From UHGV virus genome UHGV-0181186: a stretch of DNA of 41,148 nt, one strand, 5' to 3'. A program made the position numbers and the translations under genes. Positions 8,573 to 26,452 of this stretch are shown piece by piece (position 1 is the first letter of the stretch; each line of letters begins with the position of its first letter). The notes under the pieces were generated by a model. It made no database searches. It had not been told where the DNA came from and worked only from the letters and a program-made list of their open reading frames with translations. The DNA is from a virus.

Positions 8573-8587
8573 AGCTTTCTCCTTAGA

Positions 8588-8615
8588 AAATAAAAAAGGC
8601 TCCCGAAGGAGCCTA
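8588..8615 (-). terminator. intrinsic terminator (minus strand)
   Basis: On the minus strand: ggctcc-ttcg-ggagcc hairpin followed by ttttttatttt, downstream of the endolysin gene. Confidence 0.6.
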
Positions 8616-8623
8616 TGAAGATA

Positions 8624-9088
8624 TTACTTTGGGTATACACTGTCAAGGTAAATATCAGCTTCCATTCTGCGTCTGTTTTTAAGACCGTTTGAAGTGACCT
8701 TCTCACCTTTGACCGTTACCTTGTTCCACCACTGCATAGCTTCTGCACAACCTACCTTATTACCAGCGTTGTGGCGCTTGATAAATGTAGAGTCCTGCAT
8801 AGCCGTGATACCGATGTTGTATGTTTCACTAACAAGGGCATCAAACTCATTTTGAGTGGTTGGGGTTTTGATTGCTTTGTTGACTGCACTGACAAACTTT
8901 TCAACATCAGCAAGAAGATACTGTTCAGCCTGTGCCTCAGTAATCTTCATACCCATTTTGACAGGTCTTCCATCAATACGGATTGTCCCGTAACCAATTG
9001 TTGGGATTCCGGCAGAATCTTTGTAAGCCTCTAACTCCAGACCTTCGAAGAACTTAATAGCGTCTAAACCTTTTCTTGAGAGTTGCAT
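8624..9088 (-). CDS. endolysin, T4-lysozyme-like (glycoside hydrolase family 24)
   Basis: 154 aa; N-terminal FEGLELEAYKDSAGIPTIGYGT motif with catalytic Glu/Asp/Thr spacing typical of phage lysozymes. Confidence 0.8.
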   Translation of the reverse strand: MQLSRKGLDAIKFFEGLELEAYKDSAGIPTIGYGTIRIDGRPVKMGMKITEAQAEQYLLADVEKFVSAVNKAIKTPTTQNEFDALVSETYNIGITAMQDSTFIKRHNAGNKVGCAEAMQWWNKVTVKGEKVTSNGLKNRRRMEADIYLDSVYPK

Positions 9089-9972
9089 TACGCCTCCCCT
9101 GCTGGGTTAACTGTAACTGTTGCTGCATTGGATGTTACAGAGCCACCTGCACCAGTAACTACACAGGTGTAGCTTCCTGCATCAGCAGCGGTTGCACCTT
9201 CTTTGGTGTAAGTTGCAGTAGTTGCATCGAGGATGTCTTCCTCACCTTTCTTCCATTGGTAACCTGTCGCACCTGTTGCCACAACATTCAGTGTTAAGGT
9301 CTCACCTTCAGTGATTTCTTGATTGGTTGGTTGCTGAGTGATTACTGGAAGTGCATTCACAGTCACTGTTGCTGCATCTGAGGTAACACTTGTTCCACCC
9401 TCTCCAGATACAACGCAAGTGTATGAACCAGCATCAGAAGGTGCTACTGACTGTTTTGTGTAAGTTGCAGAATTGGCACTCGGGATATCCTCACCATCCT
9501 TCTTCCACTGATATCCAGTGGCGTTAGTTGCTAGAATGCTTAGAGTAAGTGTGCCACCCTCATTGACTGTTTGACCTGTTGGTTGCTGAGTAATTGCTGG
9601 TGGCTTAATAGCATCCTTCAGCTTAGCATTCAACATTGAGAACGGCTTAACTCTTGCCAACCATTCACAGTAAATAGTGTCAACATCTTTACCATTGATG
9701 ATTGCATACTGCAAATCCATGAAGAAATCAGCAGTTCTCATCTGTGCACCAACACTGTAAAGGAGTTCATCACTAAAAGGAACTTTGTAGTCTGGTTTGT
9801 AATCAAACTCCTCAACTTCTGCAATATCAGCTTCAGGCCAATATGAGCTATAGGTGAGTGGTAAAATAGCCTCTTGATATGTTCTAAAATCATATCTCTT
9901 ACCAGCTTTTACGTTTGCAATGAAGCCCTTCACAAACTCTTTAAAGTCTGGGTAAGTCTTTGCTTTAATCAT
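9088..9972 (-). CDS. protein with N-terminal domain plus two tandem Ig-like domains
   Basis: Two internal repeats of about 85 aa (…TLTL…ATGYQWKK…ATYTK…AGSYTCVV…); N-domain is paralogous to the 9969-10340 product. Confidence 0.65.
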   Translation of the reverse strand: MIKAKTYPDFKEFVKGFIANVKAGKRYDFRTYQEAILPLTYSSYWPEADIAEVEEFDYKPDYKVPFSDELLYSVGAQMRTADFFMDLQYAIINGKDVDTIYCEWLARVKPFSMLNAKLKDAIKPPAITQQPTGQTVNEGGTLTLSILATNATGYQWKKDGEDIPSANSATYTKQSVAPSDAGSYTCVVSGEGGTSVTSDAATVTVNALPVITQQPTNQEITEGETLTLNVVATGATGYQWKKGEEDILDATTATYTKEGATAADAGSYTCVVTGAGGSVTSNAATVTVNPAGEA

Positions 9973-10340
9973 TTATTTTCAGCCTCTAAATGTGCGTTTA
10001 GTCTAAAATAACCTTTGTGATTCGGAGATACATCACCAACAACAATACCTTTAACCTTATAACCTTTACCAATTACATACTGGATATCCATAAGGAATCT
10101 TCCAAGACCAACAATATGGAACATTGGATATAATAGATTCTCAGAGTCTGGAATATTGATTTCGGGTTTGTAGGTGCATTGTTCGATTGTTGGTGTAATA
10201 TCTTCTTCAGGCCATTTACTGAGTCTCCATGTCAAAGGTGTTGGGATAACATCATTAATGTTGTACCTTTCACCATTTTGCACGGAATTGATATAGGATT
10301 GTAGGAAGCAATAAAAGTCTTTTGCACTCTTAGCTTTCAT
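9969..10340 (-). CDS. hypothetical protein, paralog of the N-domain of the adjacent Ig-like protein
   Basis: Aligns by eye with the N-terminus of the 9088-9972 product (shared KxERY…YKP…LLY…FMDLQY pattern). Confidence 0.55.
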   Translation of the reverse strand: MKAKSAKDFYCFLQSYINSVQNGERYNINDVIPTPLTWRLSKWPEEDITPTIEQCTYKPEINIPDSENLLYPMFHIVGLGRFLMDIQYVIGKGYKVKGIVVGDVSPNHKGYFRLNAHLEAENK

Positions 10341-10387
10341 TAAATATCCTTATAAATAGTTAAAGGGGCATCAGCCCCTATTCACAC

Positions 10388-10978
10388 TTAAGCTTTGGTC
10401 TTAAGTAGGTTCTTAAGTTTTTTAAGATTCATACTCTCATCAAACTTAAAACCAAATCCATTGACATAATCAATGAACTCGGATTTCTTACTGAGTGACA
10501 ATGCGTAACTCATATCAAAGTTCTTACTTGTTTCTGCGTCTGGACTAGAGTTCACATCAAATGAAATTTCTGTAGGCTCTTGCTTACTTTTTCTCATATT
10601 ATCAACCAACAAACATGTATAGTTTGCTGGATAGAAATTTACACTACCATCAACGTAGCTGTACTTATTATTATGGATAAGGTTGGAAAATACCTTAAGG
10701 AATGTTTCTGAGTCGTGGCAAACAAGTTTGAATTGGCTGCTCTCTCCAAGCGCAACTAATGAGTACGGGCTTTCACTATCAAAGTCATAATTTGGATTCG
10801 ATGACGTTACTGTTACACGCATCAAGTTATTAGCAATAGTCTTCTGTTTAAAAGAATTTGGAACATAGTGAAGACCTCTATCACACTGATTAACTAATTC
10901 TTTCAATAGGTCATTTGCATATGGTGAGTTAATTGATACAGAGCCATCACTATTGTAATTAAAACTTACTGTTAACAT
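10388..10978 (-). CDS. hypothetical protein
   Basis: 196-aa ORF. Confidence 0.55.
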   Translation of the reverse strand: MLTVSFNYNSDGSVSINSPYANDLLKELVNQCDRGLHYVPNSFKQKTIANNLMRVTVTSSNPNYDFDSESPYSLVALGESSQFKLVCHDSETFLKVFSNLIHNNKYSYVDGSVNFYPANYTCLLVDNMRKSKQEPTEISFDVNSSPDAETSKNFDMSYALSLSKKSEFIDYVNGFGFKFDESMNLKKLKNLLKTKA

Positions 10979-12050: not shown

Positions 12051-13466
12051 ATGAGCGAATTATTTAAACATGCGCACCTTCATGCAGGTCGAACTGAAAA
12101 TGGTGCTGTAAACCATACTTCATCAATGTCTGCTCTTGTAGACTTTTACAAAGCTGCTGGTTCAAGCCGTAGCAATGTAGAAATCTTACCAGACTTGTTC
12201 TACAAAGCTTTGCGTGAGGATGTTGATGTTGCAGTTCGTATTTTGCTTCATATGCGAGATGTACGAGAAGGTATGGGTGAGCGTAAAGCCTTCAGAACTG
12301 TTTTGCTTCAAGCAATTGAAGATAAAGTTTTAGAGCCTACACAGGTTCTTCGCATTATGGATAAGATTGCAGAACTTGGTCGTTTTGATGACTTCAAAAT
12401 CTTCGTGGGTACTTGTTTCGAGACAGATGCCTTCAAACATTTAGAAGCAGCATTACTAGACCCTGCAACAGCAGGTTTGGCGGCTAAGTGGTTACCACGA
12501 GTCAAACCACGTCATAAGCAGTTTGTAAAACGTTTCTGCAAGTTTGCCAACTTGAGCGAGAAAGAGTACCGCACACTGTTATCTGCACTATCTGATACAG
12601 TTGAGCAAAAAATCTCTGCTAATGAGTTTGGCAAGATTGACTACAGTAAGGTTCCCTCACTTGCTGCTGCACGTTACCAAAAACTGTTTAACCGTAAGGA
12701 TGGAGAACGTTACAAAGCTTACATTGAGTCCTTATCAAAAGGTGAGGCTAAGATTAATGCTGGTGCTGTTTACCCATACGATGTGATTAAATCTGTCAAG
12801 CATGGTAATGCAGATGTTGCTAATGAGCAGTGGAAAGCACTACCAAACTGGATGGCAGAAGGTGAAAACATCTTGTGTATGTCTGATGTATCAAGTTCAA
12901 TGTCTTGGGTGAATTTTGGCTCCATTACTGCTCTGGATATTGGTGTATCACTTGCCTTGTATGTAGCAGAACGCAATACAGGTTGCTTTAAGAATGAGTT
13001 GATGGTTTATTCAACAAACCCTCACTTCATCGAACTGAGTGGTGATTTACGAAACCGTCATCGTCAGGTGATGCGACACGTTGAATATGGCTCAACTAAC
13101 TTACAAGCAGCTTTTGACCGCATTCTTGAGACAGGCAAAAGAAACAACTTGACTCAGAAAGATATGCCAAGTAAGCTTATCATCTTCTCCGATATGGAGT
13201 TTAATCAGGTTGATGGGGCTAACGGTCGTACAAACTTTGAAGCAATTCAGAGTAAGTACAAAAAAGCTGGATATGAGATGCCACAACTGGTATTCTGGTA
13301 CTTAGCAAACCGTAATGGTACTTGCGAAGTATCTGTTAAGGATAACGGTGTAGCAATGGTATCAGGGTTCTCTCCAGCCACTTTAAAAGCTCTGCTTGGT
13401 GGTGAGAAGTTTGACCCAATCAGTGTAATGCTCAAAGCAGTAATGATTGACCGTTATATCTGGTAA
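12051..13466 (+). CDS. Ro60/Rsr-like protein (TROVE-like N-terminal region plus C-terminal vWA domain with MIDAS motif)
   Basis: 471 aa; DxSxS MIDAS motif (CMSDVSSSMS), downstream IIFSDMEFN and …GFSPATL… segments resemble the Ro60 vWA domain by recollection; helical N-terminal region. Confidence 0.6.
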   Translation: MSELFKHAHLHAGRTENGAVNHTSSMSALVDFYKAAGSSRSNVEILPDLFYKALREDVDVAVRILLHMRDVREGMGERKAFRTVLLQAIEDKVLEPTQVLRIMDKIAELGRFDDFKIFVGTCFETDAFKHLEAALLDPATAGLAAKWLPRVKPRHKQFVKRFCKFANLSEKEYRTLLSALSDTVEQKISANEFGKIDYSKVPSLAAARYQKLFNRKDGERYKAYIESLSKGEAKINAGAVYPYDVIKSVKHGNADVANEQWKALPNWMAEGENILCMSDVSSSMSWVNFGSITALDIGVSLALYVAERNTGCFKNELMVYSTNPHFIELSGDLRNRHRQVMRHVEYGSTNLQAAFDRILETGKRNNLTQKDMPSKLIIFSDMEFNQVDGANGRTNFEAIQSKYKKAGYEMPQLVFWYLANRNGTCEVSVKDNGVAMVSGFSPATLKALLGGEKFDPISVMLKAVMIDRYIW

Positions 13467-13631: not shown

Positions 13632-13708
13632 CTCTGTTTAGCTCAGCTTGGTAGAGCGTTCCGTTTGGGGCGGTAAGGCCGGAGGTTCAAGTCCTCCAAC
13701 AGAGACCA
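13632..13708 (+). tRNA. tRNA-Pro (anticodon TGG)
   Basis: Hand-folded cloverleaf: 7-bp acceptor ctctgtt/aacagag, T-arm ggagg-ttcaagt-cctcc, anticodon loop tttgggg, CCA encoded. Confidence 0.75.
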
Positions 13709-13715
13709 AATTAAT

Positions 13716-13793
13716 GTTCCAGTAGACAAAATGGTAAAGTCACCACTCTTTCAAAGTGGATATCTGAGGGTTCAAATCCCTTCTGGAACGCCA
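13716..13793 (+). tRNA. tRNA-Glu (anticodon TTC)
   Basis: Acceptor gttccag/ctggaac, anticodon arm ccact-ctttcaa-agtgg, T-loop ttcaaat, CCA encoded. Confidence 0.75.
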
Positions 13794-13800
13794 GTTTTGA

Positions 13801-13872
13801 CAGAAGACCAATTACAGCAAACTTAATCTACTCATCTGAAAGTTAATCGGACAAAGAAGATATTTGGTCTGG
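13801..13872 (+). ncRNA. candidate structured RNA repeat element 1 (conserved CAGAAGACC…TTACAGCAA 5' end, GGTCTGG 3' end)
   Basis: 5' and 3' ends can pair (AGACCAA/TTGGTCT) enclosing an AT-rich variable loop; no T-arm; related copies at 13967, 14421 and 14508. Confidence 0.35.
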
Positions 13873-13883
13873 TCATTAAGAAT

Positions 13884-13960
13884 TGCGGGTATAGAGAAAG
13901 GGCGTCTCACATGTCTCATTAGCATGGTATCGGCAGGTTCGACTCCTGCACCCGCCTCCA
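13884..13960 (+). tRNA. tRNA with anticodon CAT (Met or Ile2/lysidine)
   Basis: Anticodon arm catgt-ctcatta-gcatg, T-arm gcagg-ttcgact-cctgc, CCA encoded; position 1:72 appears mismatched. Confidence 0.7.
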
Positions 13961-13966
13961 AATTTA

Positions 13967-14030
13967 CAGAAGACCGTTTACAGCAATATTTATTAAATTT
14001 TTAGCGGAAAAATTGAAAGATACGGTCTGG
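13967..14030 (+). ncRNA. candidate structured RNA repeat element 2
   Basis: cagaagaccgtttacagcaa … acggtctgg; terminal stem AGACCGT/ACGGTCT. Confidence 0.35.
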
Positions 14031-14043
14031 TAATACTAAACAT

Positions 14044-14120
14044 GGTTAGGAAGCACATAAGGTATGTGCGGTCGCCTGTTAAGCGAATGGCACAGGGTTC
14101 GAATCCCTGACTAACCGCCA
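14044..14120 (+). tRNA. tRNA-Asn (anticodon GTT)
   Basis: Acceptor ggttagg/actaacc, D-arm gcac…gtgc, anticodon loop ctgttaa, T-arm caggg-ttcgaat-ccctg, CCA encoded. Confidence 0.75.
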
Positions 14121-14189
14121 AATTTAGGAGAGAAGTGATTGCTCACCGATTTGTAAGGTGCAAGTCCTTAGCCTGAATAGAAATTAAAT

Positions 14190-14277
14190 GTGTCGTTATC
14201 CCGTAGATGGTAGCGGTGGGGACTGTAAATCCCTTGTCATTGAGACTCGGTAGGTTCGACTCCTACACGGCACACCA
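14190..14277 (+). tRNA. tRNA-Tyr (anticodon GTA), long variable arm
   Basis: 88 nt; acceptor gtgtcgt/acggcac, anticodon arm gggga-ctgtaaa-tccct, T-arm gtagg-ttcgact-cctac, CCA encoded. Confidence 0.7.
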
Positions 14278-14282
14278 ATAAA

Positions 14283-14359
14283 GGCTATGTAGTTTAACTG
14301 GAGAAAATACTCCCCTGTCACGGGAGATGATGTGAGTTCAAGTCTCATCGTAGCCGCCA
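14283..14359 (+). tRNA. tRNA-Asp (anticodon GTC)
   Basis: Acceptor ggctatg/cgtagcc, anticodon arm ctccc-ctgtcac-gggag, CCA encoded. Confidence 0.75.
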
Positions 14360-14384
14360 ATTTTGAGAGGGCTGTTTAGCCCAT

Positions 14385-14418
14385 CCCTTAAAGAGTTCTT
14401 ACGAGTATTCTTTAAGGG
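14385..14418 (+). other. 10-bp perfect-stem hairpin (possible terminator or RNA processing site)
   Basis: cccttaaaga…tctttaaggg inverted repeat; a second hairpin gggctgtttagccc lies immediately upstream. Confidence 0.45.
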
Positions 14419-14420
14419 AG

Positions 14421-14497
14421 CAGAAGACCAAATACAGCAAGAATGTATGAAATTTCAAGCCAATTTAATTTTGAAAATTTAAAACTTGGTCTGGCTC
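14421..14497 (+). ncRNA. candidate structured RNA repeat element 3
   Basis: cagaagaccaaatacagcaa … cttggtctgg. Confidence 0.35.
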
Positions 14498-14507
14498 AAC
14501 AAATTTA

Positions 14508-14639
14508 CAGAAGGCCGTTTACAGCAAAACTTAAACAATCTATTTCTCCGGTAAAGAAAAGGCGAAGGTTCGATTCCTTCACTCGGCAGATGTCGAGTTG
14601 GTGTAATGGTAGCACTTAAGATGATAAACAACGGTCTGG
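14508..14639 (+). ncRNA. candidate Y-RNA/YrlA-like RNA with circularly permuted tRNA-like module
   Basis: Order along the strand: conserved 5' motif, T-arm (gaagg-ttcgatt-ccttc), acceptor-like 7-bp hairpin capped by a tetraloop (actcggc-agat-gtcgagt), D-arm-like (gtg-taatggtag-cac), then a 3' strand (aacggtctgg) able to pair with the 5' motif. Confidence 0.4.
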
Positions 14640-14646
14640 TAATTAC

Positions 14647-14778
14647 CTTTGTAGATAAGTTATTAAGCTTACTTGTGAGTATGCGACCACAAAGGGTGAA
14701 TGGGTAAATTCTAGATTTAAACCCAAAAAGGCACATCGCTACAGACCTTAAGCAAGTCTGGGTAGCTTATCTACAAAG
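14647..14778 (+). other. long-range 13-bp perfect inverted repeat enclosing structured sequence
   Basis: ctttgtagataag (14647-14659) and cttatctacaaag (14766-14778) are exact reverse complements; interior contains hairpins cagac…gtctg and gggtaaat…atttaaaccc. Confidence 0.4.
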
Positions 14779-14788
14779 ATAATTTAAT

Positions 14789-14864
14789 GGAAGTGTAGCA
14801 GAATGGTGATGCGGCAGACTTTTAATCTGACAGGCGATGGGTTCGAATCCCTCCACTTCTACCA
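14789..14864 (+). tRNA. tRNA-Lys (anticodon TTT)
   Basis: Acceptor ggaagtg/cacttct, anticodon loop cttttaa, CCA encoded; paralog of the tRNA at 16377; T-stem weak. Confidence 0.65.
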
Positions 14865-14868
14865 ATAT

Positions 14869-14945
14869 GGTTCAGTCGCAGATAAGGTAATGCAAGGGTC
14901 TCATAAGCCCTATGAATGTGGGTTCGATTCCCATCTGAACCTCCA
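14869..14945 (+). tRNA. tRNA with anticodon CAT (second copy; Met or Ile2)
   Basis: Acceptor ggttcag/ctgaacc, anticodon arm agggt-ctcataa-gccct, CCA encoded. Confidence 0.7.
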
Positions 14946-14946
14946 A

Positions 14947-15022
14947 GCTGGTATAGTTAAGAAGGTTATAACACTCCCCTGATAAGGGAACATCGGTGGT
15001 TCGATTCCACCTACCAGTACCA
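14947..15022 (+). tRNA. tRNA-Ile (anticodon GAT)
   Basis: Acceptor gctggta/taccagt, anticodon loop ctgataa, T-arm ggtgg-ttcgatt-ccacc, CCA encoded. Confidence 0.7.
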
Positions 15023-15037
15023 ATTTCAATAAAGTTG

Positions 15038-15066
15038 TTGACATTGAGATGTGACTACTTTATAGT
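15038..15066 (+). promoter_or_regulatory. sigma70-type promoter (TTGACA-N17-TATAGT)
   Basis: aaagttgTTGACA…17 nt…TATAGT inside the tRNA array. Confidence 0.65.
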
Positions 15067-15270
15067 AACCTTAGTTTTCGTTGCGTAGCGTCTATTTTGC
15101 AAATTTAAAATAAATGCAAACGACAATGTTTTTCTGGCAGTAGCTTGATAGGCTAAACACCAGTGAGGTCTTCCAATCCCTCATCAAAGAATTTGGCGTA
15201 CTCGCCCACGGTATGATTAATAAGGTGGGCATCTTTAAGGGCTTTCTAAGAGAGTCTTTAAAGATAATTA

Positions 15271-15352
15271 CGGGGCGTATCTCAGCGGTCTTCTAAACCG
15301 CCGTTAACCGAGTAAGTGGAGTATGCGGGTTCGAGTCCTGCCGCCTCGACCA
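15271..15352 (+). tRNA. noncanonical tRNA-like gene, anticodon TCT (Arg) with no recognisable D-arm
   Basis: Acceptor cggggcg/cgcctcg plus ACCA, perfect anticodon arm gcggt-cttctaa-accgc, T-arm gcggg-ttcgagt-cctgc; only 7 nt between acceptor and anticodon stem, and a 23-nt variable region. Confidence 0.45.
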
Positions 15353-15366
15353 ATTTTGGAGAAATC

Positions 15367-15714
15367 ATGAAAACTTGTATTAGGTGCAAACTTAGCAAGG
15401 ATGAAAATGATTTCTACATGAAAGATGGTAGGAGAACTCATTCATACTGTAAAAAGTGTGTTAATGAGCAAACCATAGAAAGACAAAGAGCACTTAAACT
15501 CTTAGCTATTGAGTACAAAGGTGGGGTTTGTCATGATTGTGGTAAGAAGTATCATCCAGCAGTGTATGACTTCCATCATTTGAATCCTTCAGATAAAGAT
15601 TTTAACATTGGTCATAGGAAAAGCCTTAAGTTCTCTCAAGAACTAAAAGATGAACTTGACAAATGTGTTTTGCTATGTTCAAATTGCCATAGGGTAAGAC
15701 ATGCAAAATATTAG
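15367..15714 (+). CDS. HNH endonuclease (homing-endonuclease-like)
   Basis: CxxC…CxxC zinc-binding pairs (CIRCKL, CKKC, CHDCGK, CSNCH) and HH…N…H HNH motif; GGAG RBS; the ORF-track 5' extension overlaps a tRNA and was trimmed. Confidence 0.8.
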   Translation: MKTCIRCKLSKDENDFYMKDGRRTHSYCKKCVNEQTIERQRALKLLAIEYKGGVCHDCGKKYHPAVYDFHHLNPSDKDFNIGHRKSLKFSQELKDELDKCVLLCSNCHRVRHAKY

Positions 15715-15851
15715 TTAGCAGATTACTTAGACGACCTTAGCGGGTCTTCCTGTAGGGAGGTGGTCTGTATCTCATGTTTTCCAGAACATGTAAATAATCT
15801 GAGAAGGGGCTTTACAGTGTTGAGATAATACGGTAAGCTTCGAATTATAGT

Positions 15852-25345: not shown

Positions 25346-26452
25346 ATGTTGACTAATTCTGAAAAAAGCAGATTTTTCCTTGCTGACCTGACTGGTGAAG
25401 TCCAGTCTATCCCAAATACTTATGGGTATATTTCCAACTTAGGTCTGTTCCGTTCAGCACCAATCACCCAAACTACTTTCCTTATGGACTTGACTGATTG
25501 GGATGTTAGCTTGCTTGATGCGGTAGACCGCGATAGCCGTAAAGCAGAGACTAGCGCACCTGAGCGTGTTCGTCAAATCAGCTTCCCAATGATGTACTTC
25601 AAAGAAGTTGAAAGCATTACTCCTGATGAGATTCAGGGTGTACGTCAGCCAGGAACTGCAAACGAACTGACTACTGAAGCTGTAGTACGTGCTAAGAAGC
25701 TGATGAAGATTCGTACCAAGTTCGATATTACTCGTGAGTTCCTGTTTATGCAAGCTCTGAAGGGTAAAGTTGTTGATGCTCGTGGTACTCTGTATGCTGA
25801 CCTGTACAAGCAGTTCGACGTTGAGAAGAAGACTGTTTACTTCGACCTTGACAACCCTAATGCTGACATTGACGCTGCTATTGAAGAACTGCGTATGCAC
25901 ATGGAAGACGAAGCTAAGACTGGCACTGTAATCAACGGTGAAGAAATTCACGTAGTTGTTGACCGCTTATTCTTCAGCAAACTGGTTAAACACCCTAAGA
26001 TTCGTGACGCTTATCTTGCACAGCAGACTCCGCTGGCTTGGCAACAGATTACTGGTTCTCTGAGAACTGGTGGTACTGACGGCGTTCAGGCTCACATGAA
26101 CACTTTCTACTACGGTGGTGTTAAGTTTGTCCAGTACAACGGTAAGTTCAAAGACAAGCGTGGTAAGGTTCACACTCTGGTGAGCATTGATAGTGTAGCA
26201 GCAACTGTTGGTGTAGGTCATGCTTTCCCTAACGTTTCTATGCTTGGTGAAGCTAACAACATCTTCGAAGTGGCATATGGTCCATGCCCTAAGATGGGTT
26301 ATGCAAATACACTTGGTCAGGAACTGTACGTATTCGAATACGAAAAAGACCGTGACGAAGGTATTGACTTTGAAGCTCACTCTTACATGCTGCCATACTG
26401 CACACGTCCTCAGTTGCTGGTAGACGTTCGTTCTGACGCTAAACCAGACTAA
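25346..26452 (+). CDS. major capsid protein
   Basis: 368-aa ORF following protease/scaffold and decoration genes; GGAG RBS; call by size and synteny. Confidence 0.7.
   Translation: MLTNSEKSRFFLADLTGEVQSIPNTYGYISNLGLFRSAPITQTTFLMDLTDWDVSLLDAVDRDSRKAETSAPERVRQISFPMMYFKEVESITPDEIQGVRQPGTANELTTEAVVRAKKLMKIRTKFDITREFLFMQALKGKVVDARGTLYADLYKQFDVEKKTVYFDLDNPNADIDAAIEELRMHMEDEAKTGTVINGEEIHVVVDRLFFSKLVKHPKIRDAYLAQQTPLAWQQITGSLRTGGTDGVQAHMNTFYYGGVKFVQYNGKFKDKRGKVHTLVSIDSVAATVGVGHAFPNVSMLGEANNIFEVAYGPCPKMGYANTLGQELYVFEYEKDRDEGIDFEAHSYMLPYCTRPQLLVDVRSDAKPD

Follow-up and report, generated by a model that had tools for sequence, protein, structure and literature searches.

A putative hexamer-centre head decoration protein and its Ig-less tandem paralogue beside the endolysin gene of a Felix O1-like phage

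Layout of the locus

We examined a 41,148-nt stretch of viral DNA (UHGV virus genome UHGV-0181186; here referred to as the window), at which two related ORFs lie on the minus strand immediately upstream of an endolysin gene (Table 1). This region shows 94–96% nucleotide identity to many Felixounavirus genomes, and judging from this similarity the source phage is a Felixounavirus, a Felix O1-like myovirus. The three genes are tightly packed. The stop codon of the small gene (123 aa) overlaps the start codon of the 294-aa ORF as ATGA, an overlap kept in relatives with a length of 4 or 8 nt, while the ATG of the endolysin gene shares one base with the stop codon of the 294-aa ORF. The latter protein ends in repeats which, as first noticed in a preliminary description of this DNA, stop just before the lysozyme gene; the next ORF downstream is indeed a separate, single-domain endolysin (PF00959, E=1.2e-40, Pfam; phrog_7 endolysin).

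The hairpin upstream of the small gene, identified by reading the sequence, consists of AGGGGC-TGAT-GCCCCT followed by a T-rich tail and is identical to the Felix O1 terminator t38, ggggctgatgcccctttaactatttat (PMC3185647, Table 2). At the other end, the terminator scan detected a stem of 7 bp, 5 of them GC, and after it TTTTTTATTTT; this hairpin corresponds to terminator t35 of Felix O1 (PMC3185647, Table 2). The small paralogue, the 294-aa ORF and the endolysin gene form one compact cassette between the t38 and t35 hairpins. In a sigma-70 promoter scan, sites were no more numerous than in shuffled sequence, and the 47-nt gap that precedes the small gene contained none. The gene for the major capsid protein (MCP) is found in the structural module, about 15 kb from the 294-aa ORF.

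Table 1. Features of the cassette and of the capsid gene, with positions in the window
Feature	Position	Strand	Basis
Predicted Hex-Dec, Hoc-like hexamer-centre head decoration protein, 294 aa	9088..9972	-	phmmer vs PDB, phrog_3995, tblastn
Predicted capsid-binding domain (CapBD) of Hex-Dec, N-terminal	9607..9972	-	aligns to modelled parts of 9ncf_S and 9c2d_S
Ig-like domain 1 (I-set/Ig_3, ~aa 123-205)	9358..9606	-	Pfam, AF2, Foldseek
Ig-like domain 2 (~aa 206-290)	9103..9357	-	Pfam Ig_2/I-set, identity to Ig1
Stand-alone Ig-less CapBD paralogue, 123 aa, predicted Felix O1 ORF37 orthologue	9969..10340	-	BLASTP, phrog_4463, AF2 model
Endolysin of 154 aa (GH24 phage lysozyme), at the downstream end of the cassette	8624..9088	-	PF00959, phrog_7, Felix O1 ORF35 orthologue
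Terminator-like hairpin between 196-aa ORF and small paralogue, equal to Felix O1 t38	10352..10379	-	sequence reading
Intrinsic terminator downstream of endolysin, matching Felix O1 t35	8587..8614	-	terminator scan
Major capsid protein (MCP), predicted binding partner of Hex-Dec	25346..26452	+	phmmer to 9ncf_A and 9c2d_A

The two ORFs had been described as tandem paralogs, with the 123-aa protein resembling the N-terminal part of the 294-aa protein. This relationship is supported by the alignment statistics, which had been named as its test: BLASTP aligned the two proteins across 101 aa with 38% identity (E=5e-17), and they cross-match each other's PHROG families (phrog_3995 and phrog_4463) reciprocally, with E values of ~1e-15 to 1e-17. 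The suggestion to look for the pair beside the endolysin in relatives was also followed. The small gene was found in ~233 of 253 related records (Felixounavirus, Mooglevirus and Suspvirus), and wherever it is present the gene order is constant: 196-aa ORF, small gene, 294-aa ORF and endolysin.

Identity and architecture of the 294-aa protein

The C-terminal part of the 294-aa protein consists of two tandem repeats of 83–86 aa, which are 68% identical to each other (E=5e-36) with a period of 249 bp in the DNA. Pfam detected Ig_3 (E=1e-22), Ig_2 and I-set, in two stretches each, with Ig_3 spanning residues 124–189 (Ig1) and Ig_2/I-set residues 209–288 (Ig2). The motifs ATGYQWKK, ATYTK and AGSYTCVV, from which two Ig-like repeats had been proposed, are present in both of them. 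The proposed fold was borne out as well, since the AlphaFold2 (AF2) model reached a pLDDT of 92–97 over residues 125–290 (~95 for Ig1), and Foldseek matched the Ig region to tandem I-set/C2 Ig structures (Robo, MuSK and titin) with probability 1.00. The N-terminal CapBD of the same full-length model had a pLDDT of only 32–53 owing to a shallow alignment, and the model was left unused for this domain.

Searching the PDB with phmmer, the 294-aa protein was aligned from residue 1 to 290 with chains 9ncf_S (E=7.6e-248) and 9c2d_S (E=4.3e-166). phrog_3995 covers it entirely (E=2e-171), and its orthologues reach 98.6% identity in tblastn. On these similarities, we identify it as the orthologue of Bas63 Hex-Dec, Sf14 gp20 and Felix O1 gp36; the Felix O1 counterparts of Hex-Dec and the small gene are thus ORF36 and ORF37, respectively. 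The MCP of the window is likewise close to the capsid chains of the same two structures (9ncf_A, E=2.8e-248, ~99% identity; 9c2d_A, E=2.3e-233). Nothing substantive speaks against the Hex-Dec identification, and the protein is referred to as Hex-Dec hereafter.

In the cryo-EM structures, chains 9NCF_S and 9C2D_S are located only at the centres of facet-edge (quasi-3-fold) hexamers, with one copy per asymmetric unit, so that 60 of 80 hexamers are occupied and 20 hexamer centres per capsid are without Hex-Dec (PMC12609058, PMC11821841). The orthologues are anchored via their N-terminal 118 aa (PMC11821841, PMC12609058), and in Sf14 residues Arg79 and Arg107 of gp20 touch MCP Asp221 (PMC11821841). 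Both arginines are kept in the window protein and in all enteric Hex-Decs aligned, and Asp221 is kept in the MCP of the window. The CapBD of Hex-Dec is under very strong purifying selection, with a median omega of 0.035. Mass spectrometry detected gp20 in purified virions of Sf14 (PMC11821841) and gp36 (31.6 kDa) in virions of Felix O1, with 44% coverage. The earlier remark that Ig-like domains of phages usually decorate virions agrees well with these data. From orthologues of at least 90% identity, we infer that the 294-aa protein sits at hexamer centres in the capsid of this phage.

We propose that the T=9 capsid would form first and that a Hex-Dec monomer would then dock through its N-terminal CapBD of ~120 aa at the acidic centre of every pentamer-proximal hexamer, 60 in all, where Arg79 and Arg107 would form salt bridges to MCP Asp221. 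This docking step was demonstrated experimentally in the orthologues (PMC12609058, PMC11821841). The two I-set Ig-like domains would point outwards as a short flexible fibre. Because of the analogy with T4 Hoc, whose Ig-like domains are thought to mediate adhesion or environmental sensing (PMC12609058, PMC11821841), this fibre may adhere weakly to surfaces, glycans or other particles; a literature search for mucin binding by Felix O1-type Ig domains found nothing.

The number of Ig repeats varies among relatives, with one in EC6, FO1a and SP116, two in the window, Felix O1, Moogle and CHB7, three in HY02, CL1 and Sf14, and four in Bas63. Even within one species the count differs, by one repeat, between Felix O1 and FO1a. 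Ig2 of the window is nearly identical to residues 375–458 of 9ncf_S, the fourth and last Ig domain of Bas63; Ig1 is the counterpart of Bas63 Ig1, and Ig2 that of Bas63 Ig4. The repeat number probably shifts by unequal recombination between the 249-bp repeats.

Databases assign the protein elsewhere. phrog_3995 is labelled 'tail protein', matches to 'major tail protein' PHROGs were also obtained, and many GenBank records carry the names 'tail protein' or 'HK97 major tail subunit'. We give practically no credence to the protein being a tail or major tail protein, as the tail-family matches are confined to the Ig region (residues 96–208), the orthologous chain is modelled in capsid maps, and the authors of the Bas63 study declared the annotation of Hex-Dec as a tail protein, found in most Felixounavirus genomes, to be erroneous (PMC12609058). 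No tail domain was detected by Pfam in the 294-aa protein.

The position next to the endolysin had suggested that the Ig-fused protein, and perhaps its paralogue too, might be a soluble or cell-wall-targeting factor that aids the endolysin in lysis. The abutting genes with their 1-nt overlap, the three genes sharing one terminator-bracketed unit and the adjacency of Hex-Dec and endolysin across Ounavirinae, including the Erwinia Kolesnikvirus phages, would all fit such a factor. However, two cryo-EM structures place the orthologues on the capsid, and they occur in purified virions; the residues in contact with the capsid are conserved, as is Asp221 of the MCP, and the endolysin has a separate ORF of its own. 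Neither a domain for binding peptidoglycan or the cell wall (of the SH3, LysM or PG_binding kind and the like; Pfam, E up to 1) nor a membrane domain was found in the 294-aa protein. Moreover, in the RT-PCR study of Felix O1, which gave semi-quantitative end-point data, the endolysin gene (ORF35) and ORF38 belong to the 25-min class while the paralogue pair (ORFs 36 and 37) belongs to the 60-min class. The adjacency is better explained by the shared terminator-bracketed cassette than by a shared function. A lysis factor is thus extremely improbable, this part of the preliminary description did not stand, and neither paralogue has a role in lysis.

The Ig-less 123-aa paralogue

The 123-aa protein aligns to residues 3–116 of 9ncf_S (phmmer, E=3.8e-12) and matches phrog_4463, labelled 'function unknown', over its full length. 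Its AF2 model, built from a mixed alignment, has a pLDDT of 74 with a usable CapBD fold; its PDB matches are 9ncf_S and 9c2d_S (TM 0.68–0.70, with 0.69 for 9ncf_S, probability 1.00), with no other match at E below 0.6. No Pfam match was found, the chain ends after the CapBD without displayed Ig-like domains, and no domain or motif besides the CapBD was detected (Pfam, PHROG). A word-indexed search with a CapBD-only profile returned matches in Ounavirinae only, namely small paralogues, I-set Hex-Decs and Erwinia-type Big_2 fusions; no stand-alone CapBD outside Ounavirinae appeared in this search, whose sensitivity is limited by the index. Another profile search, against a representative library of 1.84 billion proteins, gave 60,151 matches, mostly giant multi-Ig bacterial proteins; with the Ig columns retained by sequence weighting (210 positions), that profile is uninformative on remote CapBD homologues. 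The small gene probably arose as a tandem duplicate of the CapBD alone.

The small paralogue keeps a steady length of 122–124 aa, and its reading frame is free of stop codons across 11 lineages that represent three genera. Its median omega is 0.13, across pairs with dS up to ~2, and it evolves ~4x faster than the CapBD of Hex-Dec. Long invariant motifs, including LLYPMFHIVGLG and GYFRLNA, are retained. These features indicate that the 123-aa ORF is a real protein-coding gene under selection. In 19 phage records, one common internal deletion of ~226 bp together with the loss of the start codon was identified in the small gene, with Hex-Dec retained; the gene is dispensable, given this viable clade. 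The remnant keeps the 3′ end of the small gene, which holds the Shine-Dalgarno sequence of Hex-Dec. We also considered whether the SP116-type locus is a chimera of the two paralogues, which was rejected because the remnant is collinear with both the 5′ and the 3′ ends of the small gene and Hex-Dec is intact there. Dispensability and the preserved Shine-Dalgarno sequence are what would be expected if the small ORF were a decaying duplicate or a mere leader ORF that drives Hex-Dec translation. Against the low omega over such divergent pairs, the constant stop-free length and the invariant motifs, we find decay or a leader role very improbable.

The small gene and Hex-Dec are transcribed late together, and their translation is probably coupled through the ATGA overlap. 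When the small paralogues were compared with the CapBDs, 30 positions did not vary in either group, and 27 were fixed to a different residue in each. The position of Arg79 is occupied by Gly in 11 of 11 small paralogues aligned, and that of Arg107 by N, H, Q or R among the same 11. As the contact arginines are gone from the small paralogue, capsid binding may be absent. Two conserved basic residues nearby, K109 and R113 (within the YFRLNA motif), could stand in for them.

The fold shared with the CapBD, the late co-expression and overlap with Hex-Dec, the purifying selection and the 20 hexamer centres per capsid free of Hex-Dec raise the question whether the mature capsid has a second decoration protein, without Ig domains, in the small paralogue, placed on the 20 true 3-fold hexamers or competing for the 60 sites and so tuning the Ig display. 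Icosahedral averaging would weaken the density of a monomer on a 3-fold axis. However, the remaining hexamers of Bas63 show no cryo-EM density (PMC12609058), the small paralogue is missing from the Felix O1 virion list obtained by mass spectrometry (cut-off of at least 25% coverage), and the main text on VpaE1 does not report it among 22 virion proteins, although both of these mass-spectrometry negatives are weak. Arg79 and Arg107 are both replaced, and the gene is dispensable in the 19-record clade. We do not think that the 123-aa protein is a second stable decoration protein, and this role, on the free hexamers or in competition, is quite unlikely.

The fixed differences, with the lost contact arginines, the faster evolution and the virion data of Felix O1 and the VpaE1 main text could also be taken to mean that the small paralogue was repurposed away from the capsid, for instance to bind a host protein or another phage protein, and kept the fold alone. 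This is possible, if doubtful: no additional domain or motif was found, and the strict conservation of its position, of its overlap with Hex-Dec and of their late co-expression points to a linked role.

Perhaps the 123-aa protein is an accessory, either transient or absent from the virion, which has kept its recognition of capsid hexamers or of intermediates in assembly, a reading we hold with low confidence; it might be a placeholder or an occupancy modulator for hexamer centres. More specifically, it could act as a 'blank plug' that binds hexamer centres transiently or at low occupancy (in procapsids or at the 20 facet-centre hexamers) and controls where, when and how many Hex-Decs are installed, which we regard as speculative and rather unlikely. 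Taken jointly, it is highly probable that the 294-aa protein is the Hex-Dec decoration and the 123-aa protein a CapBD duplicate, both adjacent to an endolysin without taking part in lysis.

Significance and comparison with known systems

The main feature of the locus is already known: it is the Hoc-like head decoration protein whose structure has been characterised in Felix O1-type phages. What is left as novelty is the conserved and selected Ig-less 123-aa paralogue, for which our literature search found no describing paper. The main value of the Hex-Dec identification lies in correcting the 'tail protein' label that is still on most Felix O1-like genomes, phages which serve in diagnostics, biocontrol and therapy of Salmonella and E. 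coli. Hex-Dec also offers a natural scaffold for display, which is dispensable and has 60 sites per capsid, an N-terminal anchor and an Ig number that varies within species. If the small paralogue interacts with the capsid, it would offer a simple, naturally occurring system in which to ask how decoration proteins tell quasi-equivalent hexamers apart, a question left open by both cryo-EM papers, and natural deletion strains (the SP116 clade; SP116, Z31, mio and REP5-12) already exist for comparison.

The closest known systems are two direct orthologues, Hex-Dec of Bas63 (Escherichia phage JohannRWettstein; 9NCF chain S) and gp20 of Shigella phage Sf14 (9C2D/9C3A chain S), with CapBDs ~97% and ~85–90% identical to that of the window, respectively. 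Both share with the window Arg79, Arg107 and MCP Asp221, the order of an N-terminal CapBD followed by I-set Ig repeats, and a gene beside the endolysin and more than 10 kb from the structural module. The sole difference is the number of Ig repeats, which is 2 here, 4 in Bas63 and 3 in Sf14.

A more distant homologue is the 'tail protein' of Erwinia Kolesnikvirus (vEam_PM_27 gp008 type, 206 aa), the CapBD of which shows 33% identity (E=6e-19). It resembles Hex-Dec in keeping the Arg79 equivalent and in its gene being immediately upstream of the endolysin gene; however, the Ig-like domain fused to its CapBD is of the Big_2 type (PF02368) where Hex-Dec has I-set, and the small paralogue is absent from its locus.

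The Ig domain of T5 pb10 (PDB 5LXK, 8ZVI), which is the only one in that protein, is similar to that of the window protein (E ~2e-12 to 8zvi_a and 5lxk_A). The match is limited to the Ig region (query residues 128–207), and no similarity was found between the capsid-binding domains of pb10 and Hex-Dec. We know of no stand-alone paralogue of the pb10 capsid-binding domain.

T4 Hoc, like Hex-Dec, is a dispensable monomer at the hexamer centre that shows a string of Ig-like domains (PMC12609058, PMC11821841). The 'Hoc-like' PHROG matches of the 294-aa protein cover only the Ig region (residues 120–292), and the CapBD of Hoc is C-terminal, after its Ig domains, whereas that of the window protein is N-terminal; with these Ig-only matches and the reversed domain order, membership of the Hoc family was rejected. 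The CapBD of Hex-Dec is also larger than that of Hoc, with a distinct, pseudo-C2-symmetric topology and minimal sequence similarity (PMC12609058), and Hex-Dec differs from Hoc in occupying only 60 of 80 hexamers. In its action, Hex-Dec would work like T4 Hoc or T5 pb10.

The endolysin cassette and its Felixounavirus context

The paralogue pair and the lysozyme gene were found to be three closely packed minus-strand ORFs, in which the stop codon of the 123-aa ORF and the start codon of the 294-aa ORF overlap as ATGA, and the stop of the latter shares one base with the ATG of the 154-aa lysozyme, which directly follows it as the preliminary description had stated. Dozens of Felixounavirus genomes, among them nataliec, LF82P3, VpaE1 and O157 typing phage 1 (TP1), share 94–96% nucleotide identity with the region. 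Felix O1 has the same gene order, with ORF35 (endolysin), ORF36 (294 aa), ORF37 (123 aa) and ORF38 (196 aa, function unknown). Two hairpins bracket the three genes, and both correspond, with identical or near-identical sequence, to Felix O1 terminators, t38 and t35 (PMC3185647). Elsewhere in the window are the structural module, a tRNA cluster, and the divergent genes with DUF5681 and DUF2828.

Features of the cassette and of other window regions referred to in the text
Feature	Position	Strand	Remarks
Terminator t35	8597-8614	-	strong; after endolysin
Endolysin ORF	8624-9088	-	154 aa; GH24 phage lysozyme, PF00959, E=1e-40
Hex-Dec ORF	9088-9972	-	294 aa
Small paralogue ORF	9969-10340	-	123 aa
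Hairpin t38	~10352-10379	-	upstream of small paralogue gene
196-aa ORF	10388-10978	-	phrog_4034; Felix O1 ORF38 orthologue
DUF2828/DUF7788 ORF	12051-13466	+	471 aa
tRNA genes	13632-19204	+	25 genes
Major capsid protein (MCP)	25346-26452		~99% identity to Bas63 MCP

In every genus examined, the 196-aa ORF is conserved just upstream of the cassette. It shares 28% identity with Erwinia gp009 (E=2e-20), and no domain was detected in it by the Pfam search. The 471-aa protein, referred to in relatives as 'RNA-binding protein' or vWA, is encoded directly upstream of the tRNA array and may be a Ro/TROVE-like RNA-binding protein. This Felix O1-like locus (~92–99% protein identity) was also detected inside the 147-kb record GU169904.1, 'Staphylococcus phage SA1', which points to a chimera or to contamination of that record. 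Two small-paralogue proteins labelled Escherichia coli (P0008 and P0051) are on ~88 kb contigs; these are probably complete genomes of Felix O1-like phages that were assembled in bacterial sequencing projects.

The 294-aa protein and its Ig-like repeats

The relatedness of the 123-aa and 294-aa proteins, noticed from the sequence alone, was upheld by BLASTP (38% identity over 101 aa, E=5e-17) and by reciprocal PHROG cross-matches. Likewise, the two tandem Ig-like domains proposed for the longer protein were recovered by Pfam as Ig_3 (E=1e-22), Ig_2 and I-set, with two stretches each. These domains (Ig1 and Ig2) share 68% identity (E=5e-36), with a DNA repeat period of 249 bp; residues 125–290 were predicted by AlphaFold2 with pLDDT 92–97, and Foldseek matched the region to tandem I-set/C2 Ig structures with probability 1.00. 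In a profile search and in the PDB search (chain 9flp_A), the I-set-like repeat closely resembled the repeats of giant bacterial surface proteins. The matches included GhpA, the grappling-hook protein of Aureispira (E=4e-48), along with thousands of multi-repeat proteins 1,000–7,000 aa long; this likeness fits a history in which phages and bacteria have exchanged these domains repeatedly.

The PDB sequence search matched the 294-aa protein, from residue 1 in both alignments, to 9NCF chain S (Bas63 "Immunoglobulin-like domain protein", 460 aa, E=7.6e-248) and 9C2D/9C3A chain S (Shigella phage Sf14 "tail protein", 372 aa, E=4.3e-166), whose entries describe icosahedral capsid reconstructions. 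In Sf14, the orthologue gp20 was detected by mass spectrometry of particles. On the T=9 capsid it is confined to pentamer-proximal (quasi-3-fold) hexamers, where it sits centrally and is anchored by its N-terminal 118 residues; three MCP subunits contribute the Asp221 residues with which its Arg79 and Arg107 form salt bridges (Subramanian et al. 2025, PMC11821841). The Bas63 study named the protein Hex-Dec and its anchor, two pseudo-C2-symmetric lobes, CapBD; it also placed the gene >10 kb outside the structural module and noted that most genomes mis-annotate it as "tail protein" (PMC12609058). That label, which we considered, is rejected, as the orthologues are modelled in the capsid. In Felix O1, virion shotgun proteomics had found gp36 (31.6 kDa, 44% coverage), then named "major tail protein", and its gene was remarked as oddly distant from the morphogenesis genes (PMC3185647).

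Arg79 and Arg107 are kept in the window protein, and Asp221 in its MCP. Given the PDB orthologues, the virion proteomics and these residues, the assignment to the Ounavirinae Hex-Dec/gp20 family is secure, with all sequence-testable defining features present. From the orthologues we infer that Hex-Dec would dock on the capsid of this phage in the same way, as all interacting residues are conserved. The gene is already known and structurally characterised.

The preliminary description, whose observations were confirmed in every element and whose reading of Ig domains and paralogy was right, had also considered a lysis-linked role. Of the two outcomes it had named as refuting, repeats without an Ig-like fold and paralogy lacking alignment support, neither was seen when checked. 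This part was not supported, since nothing in the protein points to cell-wall binding (no such feature by Pfam) and its orthologues are on the capsid. In Felix O1 RT-PCR, ORFs 36 and 37 peak at 60 min and were classed with portal, sheath and tail-fibre genes, whereas ORFs 35 and 38 peak at 25 min (PMC3185647). Hex-Dec as a lysis accessory was rejected. The Hex-Dec/endolysin adjacency, kept in Felixounavirus, Mooglevirus, Suspvirus and even Erwinia Kolesnikvirus, reflects genome organisation.

Hex-Dec lengths among the fetched loci fell into four classes: one Ig domain (210–211 aa; EC6, FO1a, SP116), two (293–295 aa; the window, Felix O1, TP1, Moogle, CHB7, Sf18, pEC-M719), three (372–377 aa; HY02, CL1, Sf14) and four (460 aa; Bas63). 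Felix O1 and FO1a, of one species, differ by exactly one repeat, and the window Ig1 and Ig2 are almost identical to the first and last (fourth) Ig of Bas63, respectively. Unequal recombination between 249-bp repeats would be expected to produce this pattern. Variation in repeat number is already published (PMC11821841, PMC12609058), with one to four repeats reported across Felixounavirus species (PMC12609058).

The Ig-less paralogue

A second CapBD-like gene was absent from both structural papers (PMC11821841, PMC12609058), and literature searches found no description of one; this Ig-less paralogue is the only new element, undescribed in the searchable literature, and a modest but testable lead. 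Its match to the solved chains is confined to their CapBD (E=4e-12). When its AlphaFold2 model (pLDDT 74, pTM 0.74) was compared with the whole PDB, 9ncf_S and 9c2d_S were the sole matches (TM 0.68–0.70, probability 1.00), the next structure being at E=0.6. The gene was found in ~233 of 253 related phage records from three genera, always with the same position and Hex-Dec overlap.

Pairwise Nei-Gojobori estimates from 11 lineages gave a median dN/dS of 0.13 for the small paralogue, 0.035 for the Hex-Dec CapBD and 0.13 for Ig1. The small paralogue is therefore a real protein under purifying selection, evolving ~4 times faster than the CapBD, and these values speak against a dead duplicate, which we disfavour. 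Thirty invariant positions, which look mostly hydrophobic and core-like (LLY, F-x-MD-x-QY, LNA, WPE), are common to both groups, while 27 are fixed to different residues. In the small paralogue, an invariant Gly takes the place of Arg79, and position 107 holds N, H, Q or R. Other basic residues close by are conserved, namely K109 and, within YFRLNA, R113, and through these the protein may bind the capsid by a modified interface. As it shares the anchor fold and lacks two family features, the contact arginines and Ig display, we describe it as a CapBD paralogue and not as a decoration protein.

The small paralogue was absent from the Felix O1 virion proteins listed at a cut-off of at least 25% coverage (PMC3185647) and is unreported among the 22 VpaE1 virion proteins in the main text of that study; in Bas63, no density was seen on hexamers left empty by Hex-Dec (PMC12609058). 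Its fold and selection pattern, together with its strict linkage to Hex-Dec and their late co-expression, led us to propose, with low confidence, a capsid-related accessory role outside the mature virion; the protein could, for example, bind hexamer centres or assembly intermediates transiently or at low occupancy. There are two main rivals: neofunctionalisation away from the capsid, which is about as likely as the accessory role, and a second decoration protein present at low occupancy.

In SP116, only a remnant was identified (L002:2306-2497), with no start codon and a ~226 bp internal deletion. The same remnant, as a single aligned piece with 93–100% identity, occurs in 19 records (SP116, Z31, mio, P54, REP5-12, Tf and others) of phages whose isolation hosts were E. 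coli, Shigella and Salmonella. It retains the t38 hairpin upstream as well as the 3′ end with the Hex-Dec ribosome-binding site. This recurrence points to a single deletion, passed down within a successful clade that kept Hex-Dec; the small paralogue is dispensable. It is restricted to the enteric genera and was not found in the Erwinia Kolesnikvirus locus, thus the duplication either post-dates the enteric/Kolesnikvirus split or was lost in the Kolesnikvirus lineage. Between the window and TP1, dS is 0.013 for the small paralogue and 0.58 for the adjoining CapBD, with a sharp mosaic boundary at ~9970; hence, a recent recombination breakpoint lies at or near the ATGA junction.

Comparison with Hoc, pb10 and an Erwinia homolog

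Hex-Dec works like T4 Hoc and T5 pb10, and by analogy with Hoc its displayed Ig fibre may serve adhesion or sensing. However, it is outside the Hoc family, with a reversed domain order and an unrelated anchor, and resembles pb10 in the Ig domain only. A homologous CapBD (33% identity) was identified in Erwinia phage vEam_PM_27 (Kolesnikvirus; L005:3441-4061), at a locus without the small paralogue, where its fusion partner is a Big_2-type (PF02368) Ig-like domain rather than I-set domains. Thus, different genera have paired one capsid anchor with Ig-like display domains of different classes.
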